This document shows, piece after piece, positions 1 to 13,432 of a DNA stretch of 64,000 nucleotides. Position 1 is the stretch's first letter. Every line of letters begins with the position of its first letter. The notes beneath the pieces were generated by a model. The model was not told the origin of the DNA. It was given only the letters and a program-made list of their open reading frames with translations, and searched no databases. Origin of the DNA: an uncultured Eubacteriales bacterium (GTDB lineage: Bacteria > Bacillota > Clostridia > Oscillospirales > Acutalibacteraceae); NCBI GenBank assembly GCA_905198155.1, contig CAJKBQ010000004.1, positions 28,875-92,874 of the forward strand, read 5' to 3'. The position numbers and the translations under genes are program-made.

Positions 1-584
1 CCGTCGCACAGAAAATGAAGCGGCGCTGGATCGGTGTGGAAATGGGTAATCACGCCTATACCCACTGCAAAGTGCGCATGGATAAGGTCATTGCCGGAGA
101 AGACCCCGGCGGCATTACCAAGGCACAGAACTGGCAAGGAGGGGGAGGATACCGCTTCTATGAGGTCGCACCTACGCTCATTAACAAAGACCCCTTTGAC
201 GAATATGTCATCAACGAGGACTACGACGCCAATATGCTGGCAGCTGCGGTCGCCCTGCATGAGGGATTTCGCTATCAGCCGGATGGAGACCTGTTCTGGA
301 AACAGTCTGTAGGCAACGAGAACAGCTACCTCTTTGTGACTACCCGCCACCTGAACAGCCCCTATCTGGACTCCATCAAGGACACCATGGAGGAGGGCGA
401 GTATCTGATCATCGCTTGCCGCTCCTTTGACAGCGGACTGGACAAGGCTTACGATAATATCACAGTGAAGAAGATCCCGCAAATGCTGCTGGAACGCTGC
501 GAGTTCGGCAAAGCGGATTACAACCTGAATATCGTACACCCGCCGGTGTATGATGATTGCGACGAGGAGGAAGAGGATGTCTAA
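1..584 (+). CDS. mod: Type III restriction-modification methyltransferase (Mod), C-terminal ~190 aa. The gene starts upstream of the window.
   Basis: The reading frame is open back to nt 1. The stop overlaps the start of the downstream Res helicase by 8 nt (ATGTCTAA), the typical mod-res arrangement. The MTase assignment rests mainly on this context plus weak resemblance (RRWIGVE) to the region after motif I of beta-class N6A methyltransferases. Confidence 0.5.
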   Translation, partial: VAQKMKRRWIGVEMGNHAYTHCKVRMDKVIAGEDPGGITKAQNWQGGGGYRFYEVAPTLINKDPFDEYVINEDYDANMLAAAVALHEGFRYQPDGDLFWKQSVGNENSYLFVTTRHLNSPYLDSIKDTMEEGEYLIIACRSFDSGLDKAYDNITVKKIPQMLLERCEFGKADYNLNIVHPPVYDDCDEEEEDV

Positions 585-3228
585 CGATTTCCCGCTCTAT
601 ACCACAGACTATATCAGTGGCGTCATGTCCCTCCGCAAACCGCAGACGCAATCGTTGAAGATTCTTGAAGAGATCACCAACGCCGTACAGCTCCGCAAGG
701 GCATGAATCTGAAGGCGGCACTGGGTGCTGTCCACGCTATGTATCCGATCTGCTCCGATTTTGAGCGTGACTTTATGTCCCTGACCTTTGCTCTGGCCAC
801 CGGTGTGGGTAAAACCCGGCTGACGGGCGCATTTATCGCCTATCTGTATACGCAGCACAACATCCGAAACTTTTTTGTGGTTGCGCCAAACACCACCATC
901 TATGAAAAGCTCAAGAAAGACTTGAGCGATAACGGCAGTCCGAAGTATGTGTTCCGTGGACTGGGCTGTTTTACCGTACAGCCGCAGATCATTACGGATG
1001 ACGATTACCGGGAAAAGAATCTCTCTTTGTTTGAATCCGATGTACATATCTTCGTATATAACATCGATAAGTTCAACAAAGAGGGCGCAAACATGAAAAA
1101 AGTGAACGAGCTTATCGGTGACTCGTTCTATCAGGCGCTCTCCAATCTGCCGGACTTGGTGCTGATTATGGATGAATCTCACCATTACCGGGCGGAGAGG
1201 GGTATGCAGGCACTCAACGAACTGCATCCGCTGCTGGGATTGGAGCTAACTGCGACTCCCCTTGTGACGAAGGGTAATAAGCAAGTTCCTTTCAAAAATG
1301 TTGTATATGAATATCCGCTGTCCAAGGCCATCGAGGACGGCTATACTCGCACACCCTTTGCCGTGACCCGCTCGGACATTGATTTCTATAACTTCGGTGA
1401 TGAACAGCTGGATAAAATGATGCTGCTGGACGGCATCACCTGCCATGAGAGCACCAAACGGAAGCTGGAGGTTTATGCTGTCAACCATGGAAAGCCGGTT
1501 GTGAAGCCGTTTATGCTCGTAGTTTGCAAGGATACAGATCACGCAACCTGGGTGGAGCAATTCGTAAAGTCAGACGAATTCCGTGGTGGCGCATATCGCA
1601 ACAAAACGATAATCGTCCACTCTAAACAGAAAGGCGCAGAGACCGAAGCGAACACTCGTCTGCTTCTGGATGTGGAAAACCCGAAAAATCCGGTGGAAAT
1701 CGTAATCCACGTCAATATGCTCAAAGAAGGCTGGGATGTCAACAACCTCTATACCATCGTTCCGCTCCGGACGGCCGCATCCAAAATTCTGCGGGAGCAG
1801 ATGGTCGGTCGCGGTCTGCGTTTGCCCTATGGCGAGCGTACCGGAGATTGTGATGTTGACGCAGTTATGCTTACGGCACACGATAAATTCAACGACATTC
1901 TGGCGGAGGCGCAGCGCGGTGATTCCATTTTCAAGGCAGGGAATGTTATCAAGGCGGAAGAAATTGTGCCGGAACAGGTTACCACCACGCAGTTATCGTT
2001 TGACATGCCGTCCAACGAAAGCCACGATGAAGCATATTCCTTCACACAGATTGAGCGGACAGAGCAGACCGACGCTGTGATCTCCAGAGCGCAGACGCTG
2101 ATCCGGCAGGAGGTTTCCCGCAGCATTCAGACCGAGCCAGAGCATACCGTTACACCTCAAACCGCACAGAAAATTGTTGATACGGTTGCTGCACAGCTCT
2201 CTGTGGATAAGGACTTGGGCGTTACGTTCCATGAAAATGAGATGCCGTTGGCCGCATGGATGCTGTATCAGACGGAGCAGACACATATCGCCGCAAAAGC
2301 AAAGTTCATCCCGATTCCCCGTATCAAGATCACGGATGCCGGCGTTGAGGAATATGTGTTTGTGGATTTTGATCTCGATGTGTCGGCCTTTAATCATGTG
2401 CCTATTCGCAATGAATTGCTAATCCAGAACCTTGAAGACATGGCAGATCGCCAGCGCATCAAGGGAGACGCCATTGATTTTGAAGGCTATAACCCCAAGA
2501 AAGTAATTCTGGATGAGCTGCGCAAAAAGCCGGAGATCGACTATGAAAAATGCTCTGCGCTTTTGTTCAAAATGATCTCCCGGCTTTGCGACCACTATAC
2601 AGCGAACCACGGCGAGAACGGCATGCGCAATATCGTTATGATGTATAAGCGCGATATCGCAAACAAGCTGTATGCGCAAATGATGCAGCATTTTTACTGT
2701 AAGAACGGCTTTCTGCAAGAGGAGGTCGTTGGTACCCGCGAATATAATCTCCAGCAGACTTATAGCTGGAGAGAAAAGGTCGGCCTTTTTGAATCCTTTA
2801 CCGAGGATATCAGGAATGTGCTGTTTACCGGTATTCAAAAGGGCGTTTTCAGTGAGGCGAAGTTCCATAGCAAGGACGGAGAGCTGACGCTTGCCCGTGT
2901 GATGGAAACAGATTCTGATGTCATCAACTGGCTTAGACCGCATCCCCGTGAGTTCAATATCACCTATAACCACGGCCATGCGTACGAGCCGGACTTCGTG
3001 GTAGAAACCGAGGATATTATTTATCTGGTGGAGGTCAAGGGCGAGGATAAGCTCAATGACCCGGATGTAATCGCAAAGAAAGAGCGAGGGATACAGTATT
3101 GCGCCGTTGCCTCCCGTTGGGGCAAAGCCAACGGATACAAGGAGTGGCAGTATTTGTTTATTCCGGCGGGGCAGATCAGGTCGAGTTCTACCTTTGCGCT
3201 TTTGGCCGAGAGGTTTAAGGAGCTGTAA
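577..3228 (+). CDS. res: Type III restriction endonuclease Res subunit (SF2 helicase-like).
   Basis: Walker A GVGKTRLTG and a DEAH-like LIMDESHHY motif are present. The protein is ~880 aa. A strong RBS (GAGGAGGAAGAGG) precedes the ATG at 577, which overlaps the mod stop. Confidence 0.8.
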   Translation: MSNDFPLYTTDYISGVMSLRKPQTQSLKILEEITNAVQLRKGMNLKAALGAVHAMYPICSDFERDFMSLTFALATGVGKTRLTGAFIAYLYTQHNIRNFFVVAPNTTIYEKLKKDLSDNGSPKYVFRGLGCFTVQPQIITDDDYREKNLSLFESDVHIFVYNIDKFNKEGANMKKVNELIGDSFYQALSNLPDLVLIMDESHHYRAERGMQALNELHPLLGLELTATPLVTKGNKQVPFKNVVYEYPLSKAIEDGYTRTPFAVTRSDIDFYNFGDEQLDKMMLLDGITCHESTKRKLEVYAVNHGKPVVKPFMLVVCKDTDHATWVEQFVKSDEFRGGAYRNKTIIVHSKQKGAETEANTRLLLDVENPKNPVEIVIHVNMLKEGWDVNNLYTIVPLRTAASKILREQMVGRGLRLPYGERTGDCDVDAVMLTAHDKFNDILAEAQRGDSIFKAGNVIKAEEIVPEQVTTTQLSFDMPSNESHDEAYSFTQIERTEQTDAVISRAQTLIRQEVSRSIQTEPEHTVTPQTAQKIVDTVAAQLSVDKDLGVTFHENEMPLAAWMLYQTEQTHIAAKAKFIPIPRIKITDAGVEEYVFVDFDLDVSAFNHVPIRNELLIQNLEDMADRQRIKGDAIDFEGYNPKKVILDELRKKPEIDYEKCSALLFKMISRLCDHYTANHGENGMRNIVMMYKRDIANKLYAQMMQHFYCKNGFLQEEVVGTREYNLQQTYSWREKVGLFESFTEDIRNVLFTGIQKGVFSEAKFHSKDGELTLARVMETDSDVINWLRPHPREFNITYNHGHAYEPDFVVETEDIIYLVEVKGEDKLNDPDVIAKKERGIQYCAVASRWGKANGYKEWQYLFIPAGQIRSSSTFALLAERFKEL

Positions 3229-3281
3229 TGGTCGATAGCTATAGTATCGGCTATGTGCCACATAGGAGAAAGAGGTTTATT

Positions 3282-6044
3282 ATGAGTTATTCGGGCATTG
3301 AGCATAAACTGAGAGTTTTTATCAGTTCTAAATGTGGCGGGAAATACACCATCGCAAGGAAATCGTTACAGAAGCTGTTAGATGTAACAGGCTTGGTAGA
3401 AACATATGTTTTTGAAACAGATCCAGCCAGCAGCGAAGACACGCAAAGTGCTTATTTGGATTATGTTGACAATTCAAATCTCTGTATCTTTCTCGTTGAT
3501 AATGCGGATGGGGTTCCTCCGGCTGTCTTAAGTGAAGAAAAAAGAGCAAAAGACAAGCATTTAAGATTGCTTTATATTTTTTGCGATGAGAACAAGAAAG
3601 AGCCAACCCCCATGCAGGAAGATGTCAGAAAACTGCAATCAGCAAAGTATGCTCTTGCACACGAGTTTTCTGACATCGTCTCCAAAGCATACGATAGCGT
3701 GATGCAGGACGTTATCGCGGTATATAAGAAGAAGGAAGAACTGTTTTCGGTCGAAAAGAGCGAAGTCGAGCCAATAAGTGCTAAGGCGCTAATCACTGAA
3801 ACATATTCGCTTCCAGCCACGAGTTTTTCAAAATACCCGCATGTTGCATGTGTACTCACAAAAAATATACTTCCGGTGAACCCGCTTAATAAAGAGGATG
3901 AAGAAACATCGCTCGAAAGACTGCTGTCTGAGCATCTGCAAACCGTTATTTTTCAAAAGCCCTTTGATGAGACTATTATCGATAGCATATGCACCGAAGT
4001 GAGCAAAGAGAATAACGGGGAAATATGCGAAGTTTTGCAGCTGCGATATCAGGCTCAAAAATGCTACTATCTCACTAAGTATGATGAATGTCTTATGTTG
4101 CTTCAGCAAGCTGTTTCTACTGCGATTAATAAGCAAGGTATTCCAACGTGGATTGCAAACGACATCGCAATCGATATCCGACATGTCAAAGGACGAATTG
4201 ACGAAAGAAATAGCACATTCACTCTTGAAAATCCGGGTCAAAAACTAATAGATACGAGCGGCGAACCGGTGTATTTCCCGTACTTGGATAGACAAGTCGA
4301 AAACATGCAGGAAGAGATAGCCAAAAAATATTATTCTCAGTTAAGCATTTCTCCCTACACAACAAACTGGGGTGGACTGGATCAGATTTTTTCTCCGCTT
4401 GCAAATGCTTTTTGCATTGCTGAAATGCACGGATCTATTGTTCAAACAGAGATAACGCGAGACAGGCTCATTTCGATTTATTCGATGCTCTGTATTCTTT
4501 ATGAAGATCATGAATTGCTTGTCGAATACATTAAGTATCTTATAATCAACCGAGACTTGAAGAAACTTGATGCGGTAATCAGGACATATAATCAATCCAT
4601 AGATATCCTCAATGGTCAGGATATTGATTCGATTATGGATTGTATCAATAATATGTTTGATCCTATTCATCAAATAATGTCTAAATATCTTCTGGCCAGC
4701 CGGCTTGGATATTATATGAGCGATACAGCATATTCTGCTCTTTATAGCGAATTGATAGATTACGCTATGAGGTGGGTTCAAGACGATAAGCGTGTTTACA
4801 ATATCAATACTTTTATTTTTGATTTTTTTGGACAGAACACTTACCGTATGAATGGCAAAGATATTGTTGCCTTTATACGTGAGGTATTTCATCATGGGTT
4901 GAAGCGCTTTTATATGGATTGTTTTAAGGTGCTTCGCAGTATTGATTTTGAAAAGATTACTCAGAAGGATCAGCTCAAGGTAAAACAAGTATTACTTGAT
5001 GTGACAGCGACAGAAAACGAACAACTCTTTGATCAATACTATTCTTCGGCAGTTATCCGGTTTTGCAAGACTACTGAGGTGTTATACGAAGACCTTGAAG
5101 CAGTAATAGCGGAAAAGTATCCTGATTTTTATAAGCATACATTCTTGTTGGAAATGTCAGCACAACGAAATCAAGACTTCTCTGAGCACATCAAATCGTA
5201 TATAGCGGAAGCAAAATCTCGCAACGAAACGCAGGAAATGAATGGGACATATTCTGGATATGCCTACGAAAGCCTTGATGTGGTTTATAATATTCTAAAA
5301 ACAGAGGAAATCATTCTCGGTTCAGAATTGCTAAAAAGCATTATCGATGCAGGAATTGAAACTCTATCTTCAGAAAAGCAAACAATACAAGCCAAGAGAT
5401 CGGCGGTTCGTCTTTTGCAATTTGTATATTTCAGAAGCCGTGAACAAAAAGAACTCTGGAATGAAATAGGCGACCAAATGATAGCCAATGCTGCAGCTTT
5501 TTCTATCGGAAATGAGATGGGATTTTTCTCAAAAGATACAAATCGCATATTATCATTCCAGTATTACCTCTTTATTTACAGTTCTTTCGAACCAGGCTGC
5601 GAAGGTCTGCTTGATCAGCTATATTCAACAGATTCATCGGAAGCGTATACCATTGTGCAGTTTTTGAAGATAATAACTGATTTTCTTGAGTGCGCAAAAG
5701 ATCAATTGGAGGATGATACTCTCATTTCAGCATTTTTGTATTATAGCATTTTTATGTCACAGCATAAGGAGCGAGATGTAAAGTATTACGCGACCACATG
5801 TCTGATTGAGCTAACTAATTTCGAAAATGCAAAACGCCTTGCTTTGATTCATCTATCGCAAATCATGGATACTGGATCACAAGCAGCTAAGATTGCAATC
5901 TTAACTCGTCTGGGGCGAATACAGGTTAATGAGGATGATTCGTATTTAAGGCAAATAATAAACAAAGGCAAGTCAGACAGCAATTATCTTGTACGGTTTG
6001 TTGCAGCGCGTGACGATCTTGACTCTATTGGTGACAACGTATGA
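3282..6044 (+). CDS. DUF4062-like N-terminal domain protein with a ~800-aa all-helical repeat C-terminus (TPR/HEAT-like). Function unknown; candidate defence protein.
   Basis: An RBS (AGGAGAAAGAGG) lies 6 nt upstream of the ATG at 3282. The N-terminus reads KLRVFISSKCGG...FETDPASSEDTQ...NLCIFLVDNADGV, matching the DUF4062 'vFISS' pattern. No Walker motif is present. GC is about 37% against about 50% in the flanking genes. The frame is open from 3228 (TAATG with the res stop), and the gene end overlaps the next gene by ATGA. Confidence 0.7.
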   Translation: MSYSGIEHKLRVFISSKCGGKYTIARKSLQKLLDVTGLVETYVFETDPASSEDTQSAYLDYVDNSNLCIFLVDNADGVPPAVLSEEKRAKDKHLRLLYIFCDENKKEPTPMQEDVRKLQSAKYALAHEFSDIVSKAYDSVMQDVIAVYKKKEELFSVEKSEVEPISAKALITETYSLPATSFSKYPHVACVLTKNILPVNPLNKEDEETSLERLLSEHLQTVIFQKPFDETIIDSICTEVSKENNGEICEVLQLRYQAQKCYYLTKYDECLMLLQQAVSTAINKQGIPTWIANDIAIDIRHVKGRIDERNSTFTLENPGQKLIDTSGEPVYFPYLDRQVENMQEEIAKKYYSQLSISPYTTNWGGLDQIFSPLANAFCIAEMHGSIVQTEITRDRLISIYSMLCILYEDHELLVEYIKYLIINRDLKKLDAVIRTYNQSIDILNGQDIDSIMDCINNMFDPIHQIMSKYLLASRLGYYMSDTAYSALYSELIDYAMRWVQDDKRVYNINTFIFDFFGQNTYRMNGKDIVAFIREVFHHGLKRFYMDCFKVLRSIDFEKITQKDQLKVKQVLLDVTATENEQLFDQYYSSAVIRFCKTTEVLYEDLEAVIAEKYPDFYKHTFLLEMSAQRNQDFSEHIKSYIAEAKSRNETQEMNGTYSGYAYESLDVVYNILKTEEIILGSELLKSIIDAGIETLSSEKQTIQAKRSAVRLLQFVYFRSREQKELWNEIGDQMIANAAAFSIGNEMGFFSKDTNRILSFQYYLFIYSSFEPGCEGLLDQLYSTDSSEAYTIVQFLKIITDFLECAKDQLEDDTLISAFLYYSIFMSQHKERDVKYYATTCLIELTNFENAKRLALIHLSQIMDTGSQAAKIAILTRLGRIQVNEDDSYLRQIINKGKSDSNYLVRFVAARDDLDSIGDNV

Positions 6045-6982
6045 AAGAACAAAGAGGCTATATCGTAATCCTCCCGGAACAGATCATCGAAATCCCCCTA
6101 AGCAGCAACCTTTCCTGGCTGCGGATGTTCTATGCGCTGCCGCGTGAGCTTGTGGAGAAGCGTCCGGAGTATTTGGAACTGCCGAGAAATATCCGGCGTT
6201 TGCTCGACAGCGAAAAGTACCGCAGTATGCTGAAAAGCGACAGCTTTTTGGAGCTTGTATGGGATTGCTATGCCTGGGCTGCCTGGCAGTTCTTTCAGGT
6301 TCCGAAAAAGGGCGGCAAGTATCAGGACATCCCCGGAGACTGGCAGAAGTATTCCGGCGACTTCCCATTGTGGAGAATGGCATATCTCATTCTCCCACAT
6401 TTCCGCAACAGGATCGAGGCGTCTGACGGCGCCAGCTTCCAGGAGCTCTTTACGGAGCCCACAGCGCATGACATTGATTGGCTGACATACGAGCAATTCA
6501 GCGTGTTTGTTGAAGACCTCACCAAAATAACCGTCGAAGAGGAAAACTGGCAGCCGCTTATTGACGAGATATGGAAATCCCGTCAGCCGGAGGATTATGC
6601 CGGAAAAAGCGTTCAGAAGCGGGACTTCATGCGCTCATGGATGCACAGCCGGACAATACCCGCCCTGTCCTTGGAGGAAATCAGAGCAAACGGGCTGTCA
6701 ATCAACGGCGATGCTCTCTATGATATCGCTGACCCAAGTGCGGAATTTGAAACGAGGGTTCTGGAAAAAGCCAAGATGGATGATTTCAAAAGCCGTTTGA
6801 GTGAGACGGATCAGAGAATTCTGGAGCTTCGAGCCGCGGGTTATTCTCAGAAAGAAATCGCAGAGAGGGTTGGTTTCAAGGTGCCGAGCGCAGTTTCAAA
6901 GCGAATCCGGCAGGTGGCAAATCGTTTTGACGATTTTGTAAGCAAGGAATACGGCGAATTCATAGACAAGCATATAGAGTAG
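6041..6982 (+). CDS. HTH protein with a C-terminal sigma-70 region-4 / LuxR-like helix-turn-helix. The N-terminal domain is unknown.
   Basis: The C-terminus reads DQRILELRAAGYSQKEIAERVGFKVPSAVSKRIRQVANRF, typical of a sigma70-r4/ECF-type HTH. The start overlaps the upstream stop (ATGA). No sigma region-2 motif is seen. Confidence 0.6.
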   Translation: MKEQRGYIVILPEQIIEIPLSSNLSWLRMFYALPRELVEKRPEYLELPRNIRRLLDSEKYRSMLKSDSFLELVWDCYAWAAWQFFQVPKKGGKYQDIPGDWQKYSGDFPLWRMAYLILPHFRNRIEASDGASFQELFTEPTAHDIDWLTYEQFSVFVEDLTKITVEEENWQPLIDEIWKSRQPEDYAGKSVQKRDFMRSWMHSRTIPALSLEEIRANGLSINGDALYDIADPSAEFETRVLEKAKMDDFKSRLSETDQRILELRAAGYSQKEIAERVGFKVPSAVSKRIRQVANRFDDFVSKEYGEFIDKHIE

Positions 6983-7166
6983 GAATTGCGCCTTTTCGCT
7001 GTGTACATACGTACCGAAAAAGTTTTTCAAAAAAATTCTCAAAATTGGAACAAAACACATTCCCCCATGCCCATATACTATGGAGAGGGAGAAAACAAGC
7101 GAAGCTTTGTCAAAAGACGGAGCCTCGCTTGTTCTTTATCTGAGAGAAATTTGCCGGAGGTGCAAC

Positions 7167-7640
7167 ATGAAAGAACAGAACAGAATAACGGAAGCGGCTT
7201 CCGAAAATCGAAAGCGCGGTAGGCCTCCGATAGATATCGGGACTACTTCCTGCTTAGACGGTACTCGCCGTACACAGGTCAATGCAAAGTATATGTTTGA
7301 GGCAATCAATATAATTTCGGAAGCCGCTTCCGAAATTCCGGATAGCCATATGCTCTGGCGTTCCGATGACGCAACACAAACCGCCACCGGGAAGCACGGC
7401 ATACTGGAACAGATTGGTCGTATGTGGCTGCAGGATCGTATGTCCTATGAATCCTGCGTCCTTATCGCGAACTTATCTATCAGTGCATTGAAGATGGGGT
7501 ACAAATCCCGTGAGATCGAATATGCGATTCGTAAAATCCGCAATGCAGCCAAGCTTGTAAAGAAGAATCCATATAGTGATTGGTTCTACCAGTCGGAGGT
7601 GGAAGCCATCAGAGAGTTTCAGAGAATGGCCGGAGATTGA
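7167..7640 (+). CDS. Hypothetical 157-aa protein with an AT-hook-like KRGRPP motif. It contains two copies of a palindromic DNA repeat.
   Basis: An RBS (GGAGGTG) lies 5 nt before the ATG at 7167. The ORF is open to the TGA at 7638. The upstream extension to 7080 has no RBS. Coding status is uncertain because of the embedded palindromes. Confidence 0.4.
   Translation: MKEQNRITEAASENRKRGRPPIDIGTTSCLDGTRRTQVNAKYMFEAINIISEAASEIPDSHMLWRSDDATQTATGKHGILEQIGRMWLQDRMSYESCVLIANLSISALKMGYKSREIEYAIRKIRNAAKLVKKNPYSDWFYQSEVEAIREFQRMAGD
7189..7203. repeat. Palindrome copy 1: CGGAAGC-g-GCTTCCG.
   Basis: 7-bp inverted arms around a single central nucleotide. Same core as copies 2 and 3. Confidence 0.8.
7313..7337. 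repeat. Palindrome copy 2: AATTTCGGAAGC-c-GCTTCCGAAATT.
   Basis: Perfect 12-bp inverted arms. Confidence 0.85.
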
Positions 7641-7669
7641 GGAATTTCGGAAGCGGCTTCCGAAATTCC
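7641..7669. repeat. Palindrome copy 3: GGAATTTCGGAAGC-g-GCTTCCGAAATTCC.
   Basis: Perfect 14-bp inverted arms, immediately after the TGA of the 7167 ORF. Confidence 0.85.
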
Positions 7670-7748
7670 TTCCTTCAAGCCGCTGCGGGCAGGCGCCGTA
7701 CATAGCCCGGACATTTTGCCGGGCTAAATCTTACGAAGGAGTGATAGC

Positions 7749-8339
7749 ATGCCACAAATCGAAATCATTAAAGCAAAGGTTGCACCTGCCGACGCCGCAC
7801 GACAGTACGGATTGACCGTACACAGGAACGGGATGGCGCTATGCCCGTTCCACAACGACACCAACCCGAGCATGAAGCTCTATGACGACCACTTCTACTG
7901 CTTCGCCTGCGGGGCGCACGGGGATGTCATCGACCTGTCAGCAAAGCTTCTGGGGCTGAGCTTTACGGAGGTTATTCACCGTATTGCCGTGGATTTTGGT
8001 ATTGACCCGGACAAGCCGCCGACTTTGATGCCGGTAAGACCGTATCTCGCGCAGTTCCGGAAGGACGAAACGCTGTGCATTTCAGTTCTCACGGAATATG
8101 AGCAGCTGCTCCGCCGCTGGAAGACCGAATACGCACCGAAAACGCCGGATGAAGAATTCGACGACCGTTTCGTGGAAGCCTGTCAGATGCTCGACACAAT
8201 CGAGTATTTGGCAGATTTTTTATGCGCCGCAACATTGGAGGAGCGCGTAAAAACCGTGGACGACCTGCTTCAAAACGGTCTGATAGAAAAGCTGCGTTAC
8301 AGATTGGAGGGGGTGCATGCCAATGGACGAGCTGCTTGA
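7749..8339 (+). CDS. CHC2 zinc-finger protein (DnaG-type primase zinc-binding domain; no Toprim).
   Basis: CPFHNDTNPSM...CFACGAHGDVID is a CHC2 zinc-finger signature. An RBS (GGAGTG) is present. The gene overlaps the next gene by 23 nt. Confidence 0.75.
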   Translation: MPQIEIIKAKVAPADAARQYGLTVHRNGMALCPFHNDTNPSMKLYDDHFYCFACGAHGDVIDLSAKLLGLSFTEVIHRIAVDFGIDPDKPPTLMPVRPYLAQFRKDETLCISVLTEYEQLLRRWKTEYAPKTPDEEFDDRFVEACQMLDTIEYLADFLCAATLEERVKTVDDLLQNGLIEKLRYRLEGVHANGRAA

Positions 8340-9642
8340 TTGCCCAATCTGGTGGAACGGAAAAGATATTGTCGAGGCGGCATTCTGCGAAGAGTTCACA
8401 CGCAATCATCAGCTCGCTTATGATTGCAGCGCCTTCTTTACACCGGAGGGACACATGACGGACGAGCGCCCGTTGAAACAGAAAATCTATCATGAGCTGA
8501 AAATCTGCGCCGTCAAAAACGTACCGCACACCATCAACAATATCGTGGAGCTTTTGAAATTCTACAGTACGGGTATCGATCTTGCGCCGCAGCAGGACAG
8601 AGTTCATCTTGCAAACGGAACGCTGTATCTGGACGGGACGATTGTCCCCGGAAAGCCTGAGATCGTCCGCAGCCGTTTGCCGATCAGGTACGATCCCGAT
8701 GCTCCGAGACCGGAAAAGTGGCTGCGATTTTTGCATGACCTGTTCCATGAGGAAGATATCCCGGCTTTGCAGGAATACCTCGGATACTGCCTCATCCCCT
8801 CTACCAAAGGTCAGAGAATGATGATTATCAAGGGAAAGGGCGGCGAAGGAAAAAGCCAGATCGGCAGCGTCATGAACGCTGTCTTCGGCAGCAACATGAA
8901 GGACGGCAGCATCGGAAAAGTCTCGGAAAACCGATTCGCCCGCGCCGACCTTGAACACCAGCTTCTTATGATCGATGACGATATGAAAATGGAAGCGCTG
9001 AAACAGACCAACTATGTAAAATCCATCGTTACCGCACAGGGGAAAATGGATTTGGAACGCAAGGGCAAGCAGAGCTATCAGGGCTGGATGTTCTGCCGAC
9101 TGCTCGCCTTCTCCAACGGAGATTTGCAGGCGCTTTATGACCGCTCCAACGGCTTTTACCGCCGTCAGCTCATTCTGACCACGAAAGAAAAGGCGACAGA
9201 CAGGATGGATGATCCGGATATCGCCGACAAAATGAAGGATGAGGCGGAGGGCGTTTTTCTCTGGATGTTTGCGGGATTGCAGCGGCTTGTTTCAAACAAA
9301 TTCCAATTCACGGAAAGTGAGCGCATCCGCAATAACCGCGAGTACGTAAAACGGGACTCCAACAACCTGATCGATTTTATGGAGGATGAGGGCTATGTGC
9401 GGCTCAAAGCCGATTGCAGTGCCTCTTCCAAGGAAATCTATGAAACCTATGCCATCTGGTGTGAGGAAAATGCAATGACGCCTTTGAAGCCCCGTTCCGT
9501 CAGTGATTTTCTGGTGGAGAACGAGAAGAAATACAATCTCGAGCACACCAACACCATTACGAATTCTGCCGGACGGCGCGTCTGGGGATTTCTCGGAATC
9601 GAGCTGTTGGTGAAACCCTACTGTAACAGCAGCTTGCGGTAA
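8317..9642 (+). CDS. Phage/plasmid primase of the P4 family, C-terminal domain (D5_N plus SF3 helicase-like NTPase).
   Basis: Walker A KGKGGEGKS. Overall resemblance to P4-type primase-helicase / virulence-associated protein E proteins of Firmicutes mobile elements. Confidence 0.7.
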   Translation: MPMDELLDCPIWWNGKDIVEAAFCEEFTRNHQLAYDCSAFFTPEGHMTDERPLKQKIYHELKICAVKNVPHTINNIVELLKFYSTGIDLAPQQDRVHLANGTLYLDGTIVPGKPEIVRSRLPIRYDPDAPRPEKWLRFLHDLFHEEDIPALQEYLGYCLIPSTKGQRMMIIKGKGGEGKSQIGSVMNAVFGSNMKDGSIGKVSENRFARADLEHQLLMIDDDMKMEALKQTNYVKSIVTAQGKMDLERKGKQSYQGWMFCRLLAFSNGDLQALYDRSNGFYRRQLILTTKEKATDRMDDPDIADKMKDEAEGVFLWMFAGLQRLVSNKFQFTESERIRNNREYVKRDSNNLIDFMEDEGYVRLKADCSASSKEIYETYAIWCEENAMTPLKPRSVSDFLVENEKKYNLEHTNTITNSAGRRVWGFLGIELLVKPYCNSSLR

Positions 9643-9756
9643 AACGATATGTACGTATGTACACAGCGAGAAGGCGATGTTCGCCAATATACAGGAGGTG
9701 CCGATGAACAAGGAGCTTGAACGACTGAATGATGAAAAACCCGTAATGAGGCAAAG

Positions 9757-10008
9757 ATGCGACAACTGAAAAATGAGATCAAGGCTATGGAAGCCGCTGA
9801 AAAAGGGCTTCTCCGGAAGCAGCGGAACCGGAGAATCTTCACTCGCGGCGGGATGTTGGAAGCATTCCTTCTGAAACCGCTGCTGCTGACCGACAAACAG
9901 GTACACGAGCTCCTGCTCACGGCGTTCCGTCAGCCTGCCGTTGACGCGCTCCTAAAGGCGATGATCCAAAACGCCGGAAAAGAAGACACCGGGGATGAGA
10001 CCCGATGA
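9757..10008 (+). CDS. Small coiled-coil hypothetical protein (possible relaxosome accessory, DUF3847-like).
   Basis: An 83-aa ORF directly upstream of the relaxase. A 21-codon ORF with a strong RBS (CAGGAGGTG) at 9703 in another frame could be its N-terminus if a frameshift is present. Confidence 0.3.
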   Translation: MRQLKNEIKAMEAAEKGLLRKQRNRRIFTRGGMLEAFLLKPLLLTDKQVHELLLTAFRQPAVDALLKAMIQNAGKEDTGDETR

Positions 10009-10059
10009 AAGAGGGCGCAATTATACACCGGTTTCCCGGTGCTCTTGCGTTTACAAGGT

Positions 10060-10135
10060 TGTTGGATTCTCGCAGGCTCCAATCACAGGGGCAAGCCCCT
10101 GCGCCGTTCCGGCTACCCTGTTTTAAGGTCGCAAA
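10060..10135 (+). other. Candidate oriT: inverted repeat CAGGGGCaaGCCCCTG followed by a GGCTACCCTG nick-like core.
   Basis: The IR lies in the ~150-bp intergenic region immediately upstream of the MobA/MobL relaxase. The downstream core resembles MOBQ-type YATCCTG nick sequences. Weak, position-based call. Confidence 0.3.
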
Positions 10136-10163
10136 GCGCGACTTGTGGGAATGGAGGTGATTC

Positions 10164-11696
10164 ATTATCGCATGTCCGCATTTTTCAATCTCTATCCGGC
10201 AAAGAAGCAAACCGCAGTCCGCCGTTGCCGGAGCCGCCTATCAGAGCGGCGAAAAGTTTTTCAGCGAGTACGACTTGAAGACAAAAAACTACAGCTATAA
10301 ATCCGGCGAGGTCTTGGCAAAAGGCATTCTCCTTCCACCCAATGCTCCGCCGGAATACGCAGACCGTCAGGCACTGTGGAATGCCGCCGAGAAGGTCGAA
10401 GGACAATGGAACGCCCAGCTTGCGCGGGGAATCATCATGGCGCTGCCAATAGAACTGCCCAAAAACGAATATGAAGCCTTGATCCGCGATTACTGCCGGG
10501 AGCAATTTGTCTCCCGCGGCATGATCGCGGACTTTGCGATTCACGACAAAGGCGACGGCAATCCTCACGCGCATATTCTGCTGACAATGCGGGCGATGAA
10601 CGAAAACGGGAAGTGGCTTCCGAAAGCGCGCAAGGTTTACGATCTCGACGAAAACGGCGAACGCATCCGGCTCCCGTCCGGCGAATGGAAAAGCCATAAG
10701 GAAAACACCGTTGACTGGAACGACAGAAAGTACGCCGAGGTTTGGCGTACCGAATGGGCGAAGGCGGTCAATCGGTATTTTGAGAAAAACGGTATCCCCG
10801 AACGGCTCGATCTTCGCTCCTTTGAGCGCCAGGGCAAGGCGGAGCTTCCGACGATTCATCTCGGTCCGGCGGTCGCCCACATGGAGGAAAAAGGAATCCG
10901 CACGGAGATCGGTGAATACAACCGCCGGATAAAAGAGCATAACAGCGCGCTTTCTTCGCTGCGGCGACTGCTGACCGATCTGTCCGCCTGGCTCAAATCC
11001 GTGGTGCGGAAGATTTCGGAATTCACCGAGAAAGAAGCACCCCAGCCCACGATTCTGGATTTTGTCAATGCCTATTATGATATGAGAAAGAATCAGCGTT
11101 TTGACTGGAATAAATACGCGAAACAAAAAGGTTCTGTCGTAGATTTGAAGCAACGTTCTAAAATCTTCAACTGGCTGCAGGAAACAGGGATCACAACTAT
11201 GGAAGATTTCAAGGTCATGCTTAAATCCCAACAGCCGATTATCGACAAAGTCAAAGCCAACGAAAAGCGCATCAAGCGTCTGGAAACCGGCATCGGTTAT
11301 ATCGACACCAGCGCACGCCTGAAGCCGATTGCCGATAAATCCAAGCGTGGATTCAAAAGTATAAGAGAAAAGTATGCAGAGGCACACGGGGACGAACTCG
11401 CCGAATACAACAAAGCAATTCGGTATTTGAAAGCAAACAACATCACCAACGAAGACCGTGAAAAGCTTGCAGCCGAAGTGCGGATGCTCAAAAAGGAAAA
11501 CAAGAAGCTCAATGACCAACTGCAATCTGCAAATATGGATTCGGAAATTATCCGGCAAATCCGGTATTGTGTGGACACAGTGCTCCATGAAGCAGAGATT
11601 CCAGAGAAAAAAGAAAGTGTCATGGTGATGTTGAAAGCAGATAGGACACCCGCACCGCAGAAAAGGATTCACAAAAAAGAGGAGCTGTCAATGTAA
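10164..11696 (+). CDS. MobA/MobL family relaxase.
   Basis: The HxH motif DKGDGNPHAHILLTMRAM is present. The conserved N-terminus ...IACPHFSISIRQRSKPQSAVAGAAYQSGEKF (catalytic Tyr region) is in frame upstream of the first canonical start (TTG at 10275). The frame opens after the TGA at 10158, and only ATT/ATC codons are available as start. Confidence 0.75.
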   Translation: MIACPHFSISIRQRSKPQSAVAGAAYQSGEKFFSEYDLKTKNYSYKSGEVLAKGILLPPNAPPEYADRQALWNAAEKVEGQWNAQLARGIIMALPIELPKNEYEALIRDYCREQFVSRGMIADFAIHDKGDGNPHAHILLTMRAMNENGKWLPKARKVYDLDENGERIRLPSGEWKSHKENTVDWNDRKYAEVWRTEWAKAVNRYFEKNGIPERLDLRSFERQGKAELPTIHLGPAVAHMEEKGIRTEIGEYNRRIKEHNSALSSLRRLLTDLSAWLKSVVRKISEFTEKEAPQPTILDFVNAYYDMRKNQRFDWNKYAKQKGSVVDLKQRSKIFNWLQETGITTMEDFKVMLKSQQPIIDKVKANEKRIKRLETGIGYIDTSARLKPIADKSKRGFKSIREKYAEAHGDELAEYNKAIRYLKANNITNEDREKLAAEVRMLKKENKKLNDQLQSANMDSEIIRQIRYCVDTVLHEAEIPEKKESVMVMLKADRTPAPQKRIHKKEELSM

Positions 11697-12113: not shown

Positions 12114-13432
12114 ATGGAGAACGCATATATCTATACTCGTGTTTCCACGCTCATACAGGTGGATGGCTTCTCTCTTGATGCGCAGGAAGAAGAAATCAGA
12201 GACTTTGCCAAGAGGCGGGACATCAGCATCGTAGGAAAATACTCTGATGAAGGCAAATCCGGCAAGAACGCCGAACACAGACCTGCGTTCAGCCAAATGA
12301 TGGAGGATATATCACCCGCAAGCTGAATGATGAAAATGTAACGAGGCAGCAGCGCGGAAATACAAAGATTTCCGGGTTTACTGATAGAACGATCCGGGCT
12401 ATTCTGAAAAATCCTGTCTACGAAGGCAAGATTGCCTATGGCCGCCGCCATACGGTAAAAGTTGAGGGTACAAACAACGAGACAAAGGTCGTAAAACAGG
12501 ATGACGAAAGTAAAATCATACTGGTCGATGGCTTACACGACGCAATTATATCCGAGGAAACCTTTGAAAGAGCCCAGAGTCTTCTTGCAAAACGCGCAGC
12601 CCACAGGAAAACCCGCAGTGACAGCACCAATATTTATCCGTTGACGGGCCTCATCAAATGCCCGGATTGCGGCAAAAACCTTTTCGGGTATACGGCTCCG
12701 CAAAGGCCGCGAAAAAACGGAAAGGAAGGCTTTTATCCCCGGTATATTTCCTATCGCTGTATTTCCGGCAGAGACCGAAACGGACTGATCTGTTCATTGG
12801 CAAACAAGTATTACAGTGGCACTAAGCTGGAAAAGGAGGTGCGCGATGTTATCTCCGCGATGGTAACGATCCCGGAATTTGTAGAATTGATCTCAAAGAA
12901 AGTAGACTGTGAAACCGATATTGAGCGTCTAAGAAAGAAACGAGCCGGAATTGAAGCCGAGCACAATAAATACAGAAACAATCTCATGCAGACCGAAAAA
13001 AGACTTTCAGAGCTGGATGCCGGTGACAGACATTATGAGAAAAAGGTTGACAGTCTGAACCGCGTATTAGATGATATCTACGACAAGCTGGATGATACTC
13101 AGACAAGGCTGGATCAGGTCGATGACGAAATCACGATGGTACAGAAATCCACCATGACGAAGGAATCCATCTTTGAAATGCTGGAAGGGTTCAGCAAATA
13201 CTACGATGTAATGTCCCCGGAGGACAAGAAAGGACTGCTGCGAGCCATGATTTCTTCCATAGAAATCAACGAGCTCCCAAAGGGAAAACGGGCAGACGGG
13301 CGTCTGATTAAAACCATCCACTTTACATTCCCTGTGACCTATGACGGAGAAAGTGGAGTCTTGTTTGTCAGCAATACAGGCGGTGAAGTTGAAACCGTCT
13401 GTCTCCTCACCAAACACGCAGAAAGTAAATAA
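12114..13432 (+). pseudogene. Large serine recombinase, internally deleted and frameshifted.
   Basis: The N-terminal 70 aa (MENAYIYTRVST..., catalytic Ser present) stop at 12326. The recombinase-domain tail (…ITRKLNDENV…IRAILKNPVYEGK…), the Zn ribbon (CPDCGKNLFGY) and the coiled-coil continue in the -1 frame, open from 12246. About 150 aa are missing: the rest of the catalytic domain, helix E and the start of the recombinase domain. Confidence 0.75.

Follow-up and report, generated by a model that had tools for sequence, protein, structure and literature searches.

A DUF4062/NIR-solenoid protein as a candidate stand-alone defence gene in the cargo slot of a Clostridia mobilizable element

Described DUF4062/NIR systems

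DUF4062 domains have entered the literature on bacterial immunity through three 2026 preprints, which describe them as nicotinamide adenine dinucleotide (NAD+)-consuming enzymes (NADases) acting in abortive-infection defence (bioRxiv 10.64898/2026.05.01.722283, 10.64898/2026.06.25.731849, 10.64898/2026.09.04.749371). Here we compare those systems with a gene found in a 64,000-nucleotide stretch of DNA, called the window throughout, from an uncultured Eubacteriales bacterium (Bacillota; Clostridia; Oscillospirales; Acutalibacteraceae; assembly GCA_905198155.1, contig CAJKBQ010000004.1, positions 28,875 to 92,874, forward strand). The gene (3282..6044, on the + strand, like every feature below) encodes a 920-amino-acid (aa) protein with a DUF4062-type domain, also named NIR, at its N-terminus and a long helical solenoid behind it. 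It lies between the mod and res genes of a type III restriction-modification (R-M) system and a gene for a 313-aa protein, the first backbone gene of an integrative mobilizable element. We think it probable (about 0.7) that the gene is a stand-alone DUF4062/NIR abortive-infection defence gene, carried as a low-GC cassette in the cargo slot of that element and unlinked to the 313-aa gene.

Depletion or hydrolysis of NAD+, lost when the catalytic Glu is mutated, has been reported for six DUF4062 domains: those of KpSwz, Eva01, PsAvs2, Vulcan, VstA and human TEP1. Osinski et al. identified DUF4062 as a TIR-like NADase; the phage portal is the trigger of the Swarozyc protein KpSwz (catalytic E97), which has a TIR-like core plus stalk (residues 15-205) and, in its auxiliary (AUX) region, the portal-binding residues W238/Y239 (bioRxiv 10.64898/2026.05.01.722283). 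Ibarra-Chavez et al. described the plasmid-borne system Evangelion: the auxiliary region of Eva01 is short and its key residues are F11, E87 and W162, a stop at L177 removes the C-terminal AUX, the system is over-represented on resistance plasmids of staphylococci and enterococci, and 447 Evangelion-positive plasmids are reported in PLSDB (bioRxiv 10.64898/2026.06.25.731849). Le Mouellic et al. renamed DUF4062 NIR, found that PsAvs2 (E108) depletes NAD+, and also described Vesta and Vulcan, the latter a single protein with an N-terminal NIR domain (E98) and C-terminal HEAT repeats that is activated by a lambda protein (bioRxiv 10.64898/2026.09.04.749371).

A NIR-type domain joined to a helical solenoid

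An AlphaFold2 model of the full-length 920-aa protein, built on 38 relatives, has a predicted local distance difference test score (pLDDT) of 83.9 and a predicted template modelling score (pTM) of 0.74. Residues 10-149 fold into a domain in which beta and alpha elements alternate; a disordered stretch (150-182) follows, and then an all-alpha part (186-915). In the window these correspond to the NIR/DUF4062 TIR-like domain at 3303..3731 (residues ~8-150), a poorly conserved linker at 3732..3836 (residues ~151-185; pLDDT about 30, mean conservation 0.23) and an all-alpha HEAT/TPR-like solenoid at 3837..6026 (about 730 aa, 39 helices), presumed to be the sensor or regulatory region. The five parallel strands of the modelled N-domain alternate with helices in the manner of the TIR-like/deoxyribosyltransferase-like fold, and a low-confidence loop at residues 46-55 takes the BB-loop position.

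Profile searches agree with this division. The Pfam family DUF4062 (PF13271) matches residues 11-74 of the protein over model positions 1-62 of 82 (E=1.9e-4); it is also matched, with E<=0.01 (best 1.2e-6), by each of the 38 relatives in the alignment, and no second family recurs. No Walker A motif was found in the 920-aa protein, a Pfam scan gave no NTPase or nuclease match to it, and no NACHT, NB-ARC or AAA domain was seen in it or in its relatives. The solenoid has no Pfam HEAT or TPR match, the HEAT assignment being one of fold only; its Foldseek matches among Protein Data Bank (PDB) structures (PP2A-A, SF3B1, importin-beta, HEATR1, LGN, Rap proteins and DSR2) are weak and partial. A PDB search with the N-domain family profile returned nothing significant, and neither NCBIfam nor PHROGs holds a model for the large protein. 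A PADLOC match to LmuC (E=0.0037, 14.7 bits), weak, partial and not recurrent, was put down to chance.

An earlier first-pass annotation of this DNA had described the protein as a DUF4062-like N-terminus followed by helical repeats with no NTPase or nuclease motif, and had listed a defence or abortive-infection module among its candidate roles. The description holds, and such a module is the best reading of the large gene, which encodes a DUF4062-plus-helical protein found in defence contexts. The same annotation took the pairing of such a protein with a helix-turn-helix protein next to a type III R-M to be undescribed; the architecture of the large protein itself has since been covered by the 2026 preprints that define the DUF4062/NIR NADase and the NIR-HEAT protein Vulcan (bioRxiv 10.64898/2026.09.04.749371).

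The family to which the protein belongs is large. An exhaustive profile search of 1.84 billion representative proteins (clusters at 50% identity) gave 799 matches with E<=1e-3, and 373 clusters reach E<=1e-30. Among the 150 strongest matches almost every protein is full-length, at ~900-950 aa. When one genome per GTDB species was scanned, at least 115 carried a relative: mostly Clostridia and Bacilli, with a few Bacteroidota, Chloroflexota, Spirochaetota and Desulfobacterota, and with no Enterobacteria among the best 80 of the 115 species matches. In seven relatives (P0300, P0302, P0313, P0323, P0337, P0371 and P0380) the best profile match starts only at position ~170-200, which raised the suspicion that the effector had been swapped; this was rejected, as a local hmmsearch finds that all of them retain the NIR domain and differ only by a longer linker, as in P0300, P0313 and P0337. 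Another relative (P0374, 1263 aa) carries a calcineurin-like metallophosphoesterase (PF00149, 2e-14) N-terminal to a complete NIR-solenoid, an arrangement that recalls the NIR and phosphatase pairing of Vesta.

An alignment of 231 members (21-99% identity to the query) shows where the family is constrained. Conservation is highest in the N-domain (0.58, vs 0.37-0.44 in the solenoid), and the best-kept residues there are F13, S15, S16, R26, E45, N74, E85, F100 and Y148. E85 is kept in 99.6% of members, F13 and E45 in 98% each, and F13, S15, S16, E45, N74, E85 and F100 fit the aromatic, W/E and catalytic-Glu motifs described in the literature. From Phe13, in the VFISS strand, to Glu85 is 72 residues, vs 76 from F11 to E87 in Eva01. 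Glu85 (GAA codon at 3534..3536), the predicted catalytic glutamate, follows strand C and opens helix alpha-C, the place of the catalytic Glu in TIR and nucleoside deoxyribosyltransferase (NDT) enzymes.

How does this protein compare with the systems described above? In the model it has the architecture of Vulcan (Enterobacter roggenkampii, WP_050009967.1): both are one polypeptide whose N-terminal NIR domain, with a conserved Glu (E98 in Vulcan, E85 here), is fused directly to alpha-helical HEAT-type repeats with no NTPase, and both genes occur alone amid defence-rich neighbourhoods, as far as relatives of the 920-aa gene are concerned. The two differ in that Vulcan comes from Enterobacteria and the 920-aa family from Bacillota (gut Clostridia, Bacilli), and in that the solenoid considered here is built of both HEAT- and TPR-like segments and has a charged patch that is invariant. 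With Swarozyc the protein shares a DUF4062 TIR-like head followed by a region that binds the trigger (presumably so here), a single gene, a predicted abortive-infection logic, an association with defence islands and horizontal spread; its C-terminal region is a ~730-aa solenoid, whereas KpSwz binds the phage portal through AUX. With Evangelion it shares mobile-element carriage, a core and C-terminal region forming a co-adapted unit, and a DUF4062 core with the aromatic first-strand motif, a W/E-type motif and a (here predicted) catalytic Glu. Unlike Eva01, whose AUX is short, the protein is long and has no tblastn match in PLSDB, and the ~730-aa solenoid likewise sets it apart from the short auxiliary region typical of Swarozyc and Evangelion type 01. 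Nor does it fit the NIR-Avs or NLR-like type with a central STAND NTPase, since everything after the linker is modelled as all-alpha.

A further comparison lies outside the DUF4062 class. DSR2, a SIR2-HEAT NADase of Bacillus subtilis, is activated by a phage structural protein. Its organisation (PDB 8k9a, 8wyd) is similar, with an N-terminal Rossmann-like NADase and a ~700-aa helical-repeat sensor in a protein of ~1000 aa; its effector is SIR2, as against the TIR-like NIR domain here. The Foldseek matches between DSR2 and the 920-aa model run over about 1,100 alignment columns and are weak (TM 0.12-0.19, E>0.01), and as far as could be tested with the model the relation would be one of analogy, not homology.

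Predicted activity and the main doubts

By analogy with Vulcan, Swarozyc and DSR2, the HEAT/TPR-like solenoid would keep the NIR domain off until a phage-derived trigger, most likely a phage protein, is bound. Binding, probably via oligomerisation, would free the NIR domain, with Glu85 as its catalytic residue, and the freed domain would destroy NAD+ and thereby abort the infection. Both the NADase chemistry and the sensing of a trigger are predictions carried over from these relatives and analogues.

Several points weigh against this picture. First, the PF13271 score of the protein, 22.0 bits, lies below the Pfam gathering cut-off of 24.7, and PADLOC 2.0 (2023) has no model for it. Second, that Glu85 would be the published catalytic Glu is something we infer from spacing, motif and secondary structure rather than from a superposition, and the likeness to Vulcan is one of architecture. 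Third, relatives are absent from PLSDB plasmids and GenBank phages (tblastn) and from IMG/VR viral contigs (pattern scan), for which reason the NIR-solenoid family is best regarded as distinct in sequence from the plasmid-borne Evangelion lineage. Fourth, an invariant charged patch at residues 255-385 is not what would be expected of a purely adaptive sensor surface. Finally, deoxyribosyltransferases are the top structural neighbours of the N-domain, so that, going by the model, it might act on some nucleoside or nucleotide different from NAD+.

The last of these points is also the basis of the main rival to the NADase reading, in which the protein is a defence effector with a different nucleotide substrate, its N-domain hydrolysing or exchanging bases on (deoxy)nucleotides or synthesising a signalling nucleotide. 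The closest structural neighbours are nucleoside 2-deoxyribosyltransferase, Rcl and MilB; the PsAvs2 effector was first annotated as a CMP (cytidine monophosphate) hydrolase (bioRxiv 10.64898/2026.09.04.749371), and several adenine metabolites are perturbed in Eva01 infection (bioRxiv 10.64898/2026.06.25.731849). However, all DUF4062 domains so far tested deplete or hydrolyse NAD+ in a Glu-dependent manner, and the VFISS first-strand motif together with a Glu at the start of alpha-C is TIR-like. We consider a substrate other than NAD+ unlikely.

The charged/aromatic patch raises a separate question, about mechanism. It lies in the helical region (window 4044-4436), comprises R255, W290, D294, D298, R300, Q320, P333, D336, R337 and S385, with the motifs WIANDIAIDIRH, NPGQK and PYLDRQ, and is as well conserved as the predicted NADase site across the 231 relatives, down to 21% identity. 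The patch, in the first ~200 residues of the solenoid, might form a second catalytic or small-molecule-binding site, in which case the protein would belong to a mechanistically distinct NIR system and would not be a Vulcan orthologue. We offer this tentatively and think it improbable; if true, such a site would make the Bacillota NIR family ligand-gated or dual-activity. The patch is the sole feature that could set the 920-aa protein beyond a Bacillota member of the kind described in 2026.

A low-GC cassette in varied neighbourhoods

Relatives of the 920-aa gene keep varied company. Their nearest neighbours were compared in 80 species genomes, and of these 143 genes no more than 5-6 belong to any one PADLOC or Pfam family. 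The neighbours include type I, II and IV restriction endonucleases, SoFic, PbeA, AbiL, GmrSD, Schlafen, recombinases and transposases, none of them recurrent, and gaps to same-strand neighbours are mostly >100 nt. Individual loci illustrate the variety: one relative lies downstream of a type I/IIG methylase, an S subunit and a DndB-like gene, with BREX nearby (L001); another follows a Schlafen-type (SLFN) helicase and adjoins Mrr (L004); a third stands beside AbiTii/AbiEii within a polysaccharide locus, a non-mobile context (L009); and a fourth is alone, adjoining TnpV (L010). This comparison suggests that the large gene works alone, without an obligate partner.

The composition of the window also marks the gene off. 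The large gene (taken as 3228-6044) has a GC content of 38.7% and a third-position GC content (GC3) of 37.6%, a sharp break from res, the 313-aa gene and the element backbone (GC 50-54%, GC3 60-65%) and from the remaining window (57%). Nucleotide homology to other copies of the gene is confined to 3259-6022, ending at the gene edges. Because of this GC discontinuity and because homology ends at the gene edges, the 920-aa gene is recognised as a recently inserted, horizontally acquired low-GC cassette, which would have landed in the cargo slot of a ~16-kb element, with type III mod-res before it and the first backbone gene directly behind it. Two layers would stand next to each other here, a restriction layer, with the R-M pair acting first, and an abortive-infection layer, with the NIR protein acting second.

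A passenger of this kind might instead serve its carrier, by addiction, by exclusion of competing elements, or as a scaffold whose TIR-like domain is catalytically silent. Integrative elements often carry relatives, with TnpV, relaxases, integrases and transposases nearby, and NAD+ depletion could equally stabilise an element. Yet the putative catalytic Glu is all but invariant, which speaks for an active enzyme, the neighbours are mostly bona fide anti-phage genes, and relatives also turn up outside mobile DNA, for example in the polysaccharide locus of L009. We hold a role in service of the element to be very unlikely.

The gene layout around the cassette is compact. The 3' part of mod occupies 3..584 (frame 3, truncated by the window start; PADLOC MTase_III E=5.5e-52); the complete gene, seen in a ~98%-identical locus (L022), encodes 541 aa with an N6_N4_Mtase domain. 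The res gene runs from 577 to 3228 (577..3228; Pfam ResIII 3.2e-21, PADLOC REase_III E=1.4e-146). Although its open reading frame (ORF) spans 550-3228, the true start is probably ATG 577. Preceded by GAGGAGGAAGAGG, this start runs into the mod stop (TAA 582-584) as ATGTCTAA at 577-584; the gene is called at 883 aa in L007. A Mod methyltransferase and a Res helicase-nuclease thus share one operon, as in type III R-M. A TAATG closes res at 3224-3230, and its ATG 3228 is in frame with a 938-aa ORF; ATG 3282, giving 920 aa and the N-terminus MSYSGIEHKLRVFISS, is the start common to nearly all 38 aligned relatives, and homology to other gene copies begins at 3259-3281, close to it. Shine-Dalgarno-like sequences precede both (AAGGAG at 3217-3222 and GAGG at 3272-3275, respectively). 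Because the conserved start is ATG 3282, res and the 920-aa gene are separated by a gap of 53 nt, and the start at the TAATG overlap is a possible alternative. At the other end, the stop (TGA 6042-6044) and the ATG of the 313-aa gene (6041-6043) share an ATGA at 6041-6044, and ATG 6041 agrees with the conserved N-terminus of the 313-aa family. Between res and the large gene, and between that gene and the 313-aa gene, the + strand shows no terminator-like site, so co-transcription is plausible, and all four genes, from mod to the 313-aa gene, probably form a single transcript in this copy. A promoter scan added no information (13 sites vs 8.9+/-2.7 expected).

The first-pass annotation had this layout right at the level of sequence, the ATGA overlap included. 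It also saw in the TAATG the start of a frame running into the 920-aa protein, which holds with the refinement that ATG 3228 opens a 938-aa frame and that the conserved start is ATG 3282. From the chain of overlaps it concluded that the genes are co-transcribed with mod-res, which is plausible here but does not extend to a conserved functional link. It went on to propose that the 920-aa and 313-aa proteins are a two-gene module, for defence or for regulating the R-M system, hard-wired to mod-res by translational coupling, and it suggested mapping gene neighbourhoods as a check. That check went the other way. In a tblastn search of 90 loci with a large-gene relative, a 313-aa homologue is adjacent in 4 (L006-L008 and L022), each of them a near-identical copy of the window element. 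Nucleotide identity is 98-100%, and L022, from a Christensenellaceae metagenome-assembled genome (MAG), is ~98% identical to the window across the element; no 313-aa homologue occurs within 10 kb in the remaining loci. A close mod-res pair is otherwise found among the 90 loci only in L100, on the opposite strand.

L100 (1417-8675, an Oscillospiraceae MAG) deserves separate mention: its mod-res pair, ~80% identical in protein to that of the window and divergently oriented, adjoins a distant (~26%) relative of the large protein, so that this R-M type and the large-protein family are neighbours in a second, independent case.

Altogether, although the two-gene model can point to the TAATG and ATGA junctions with no terminator-like site between the genes, to the repeated arrangement in L006-L008 and L022 and to L100, it is scarcely credible and, by the co-occurrence data, largely refuted: the recurrences are copies of a single element, other large-gene loci lack the 313-aa homologue, 313-aa homologues lack the large gene in every other element examined (L011-14, L015-18, L019-21 and L102), the R-M pair of L100 is divergent, the conserved start of the large gene lies 53 nt past the res stop, and the GC discontinuity marks a recent insertion. 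Since the large gene is a low-GC cassette with homology that stops at its edges, it is not hard-wired to the R-M system; these data refute a conserved functional link that would join the large gene to the 313-aa gene and to the type III R-M, and the arrangement is a local accident.

The mobilizable element and what the family may mean

The 313-aa gene (6041..6982) has its own associations. The family of its product outnumbers that of the large protein by far, its clusters reaching 1,927 members, and in every context recovered the gene opens a conserved module: the 313-aa gene, a gene for ~157-189 aa, a CHC2 Zn-ribbon, a DUF5906/P4-type primase, DUF3847, MobA/MobL, a small ORF and a serine recombinase. 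What lies upstream varies. In L015-18 it is a different type III R-M system, made up of mod (655 aa), a 173-aa ORF and res (1051 aa), and the 313-aa gene directly follows res; in L102-103 it is a type I R-M, with the gene placed after hsdR in L102; in L019-21 it is leucine-rich repeat (LRR) proteins, and in L011-14 chromosomal genes. Because it always opens the backbone while the upstream cargo varies, the 313-aa gene is, from gene order, assigned to the element backbone and not to the defence gene, and its product is probably a transcriptional regulator of the primase/relaxase module of the element.

The first-pass annotation had given this protein a sigma-70 region-4 helix-turn-helix (HTH). 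An HTH match is there (residues ~245-295, window 6773..6925), but it stays below the cut-offs: Sigma70_r4_2 matches residues 251-282 at E=2.2e-4 with 21.2 bits against a cut-off of 25.7, HTH_38 is also sub-cut-off, and NCBIfam sigma70-ECF (TIGR02937) scores 24.8 bits against 42.9, covering only residues 194-289. A PDB profile search with the family gave nothing significant, with weak matches to LuxR/VraR C-terminal HTH domains. The protein is accordingly described, on its profile matches, as having an r4/LuxR-type HTH and as no demonstrable sigma factor. Its N-terminal ~240 aa have no recognisable relative, and NCBIfam and PDB profile searches found no characterised homologue. PADLOC also matched CARF3 (E=2e-4), but nowhere outside the HTH; this weak and partial match does not recur and was dismissed as chance.

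In the window the replication and mobilization backbone continues (7080..11696 overall) with a gene for a 186-aa protein (7080-7640), then, by Pfam and NCBIfam matches, the CHC2 Zn-ribbon (7749-8339), the P4-type primase C-terminal/DUF5906 gene (8317-9642), DUF3847 (9757-10008) and the MobA/MobL relaxase (10275-11696). This order is shared with L006, L015-18 and L102. A slot for cargo before the 313-aa gene (window 6041; L015-18:1-8000, L102:343-7216, L019-21:1-7504) holds varied contents, among them two unrelated type III R-M systems. Like Tn4451 and related integrative mobilizable elements of Clostridia, the element combines a serine recombinase with a Mob relaxase (here MobA/MobL), and it also has a P4-type primase and accessory cargo at one end; it differs in that its backbone was not matched to a named element and in the 313-aa sigma-r4-like protein, which is without a characterised homologue.

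In L022, the closest relative with an intact copy, the element is flanked by a rumA-like tRNA U5-methyltransferase gene and by GNAT/MerR genes, and the insertion site, there and in L016-18, is the 3' end of the rumA-like gene. The L022 copy also holds an AAA_14/DUF4143 ATPase gene before mod (L022:4364-5641), a position beyond the left edge of the window. The large serine recombinase gene of the window (12114..13423), located by tblastn with the intact 577-aa L022 protein (Pfam Resolvase, Recombinase and Zn_ribbon_recom), is broken: relative to the intact gene of L022 and L006, it lacks 386 bp at ~12311, where short ATATA repeats flank the gap, so that residues 67-195 of the catalytic domain are gone and the frame is shifted. 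This copy of the element may thus be immobilised, or the assembly may have collapsed.

Two lessons extend beyond the single locus. Overlapping stop and start codons are no proof of a functional system, and small mobilizable elements of Clostridia have a slot for defence cargo before a conserved HTH gene, which makes the slot a good site to search for more of them. As regards the protein, the domain boundaries are clear and E85 is a testable candidate catalytic residue. To our knowledge, experiments on the NIR/DUF4062 class have so far used only proteins of Proteobacteria or Staphylococcus. The present comparison would place in this class of NADase defences a large uncharacterised family of gut and environmental Bacillota whose members are annotated as hypothetical everywhere.

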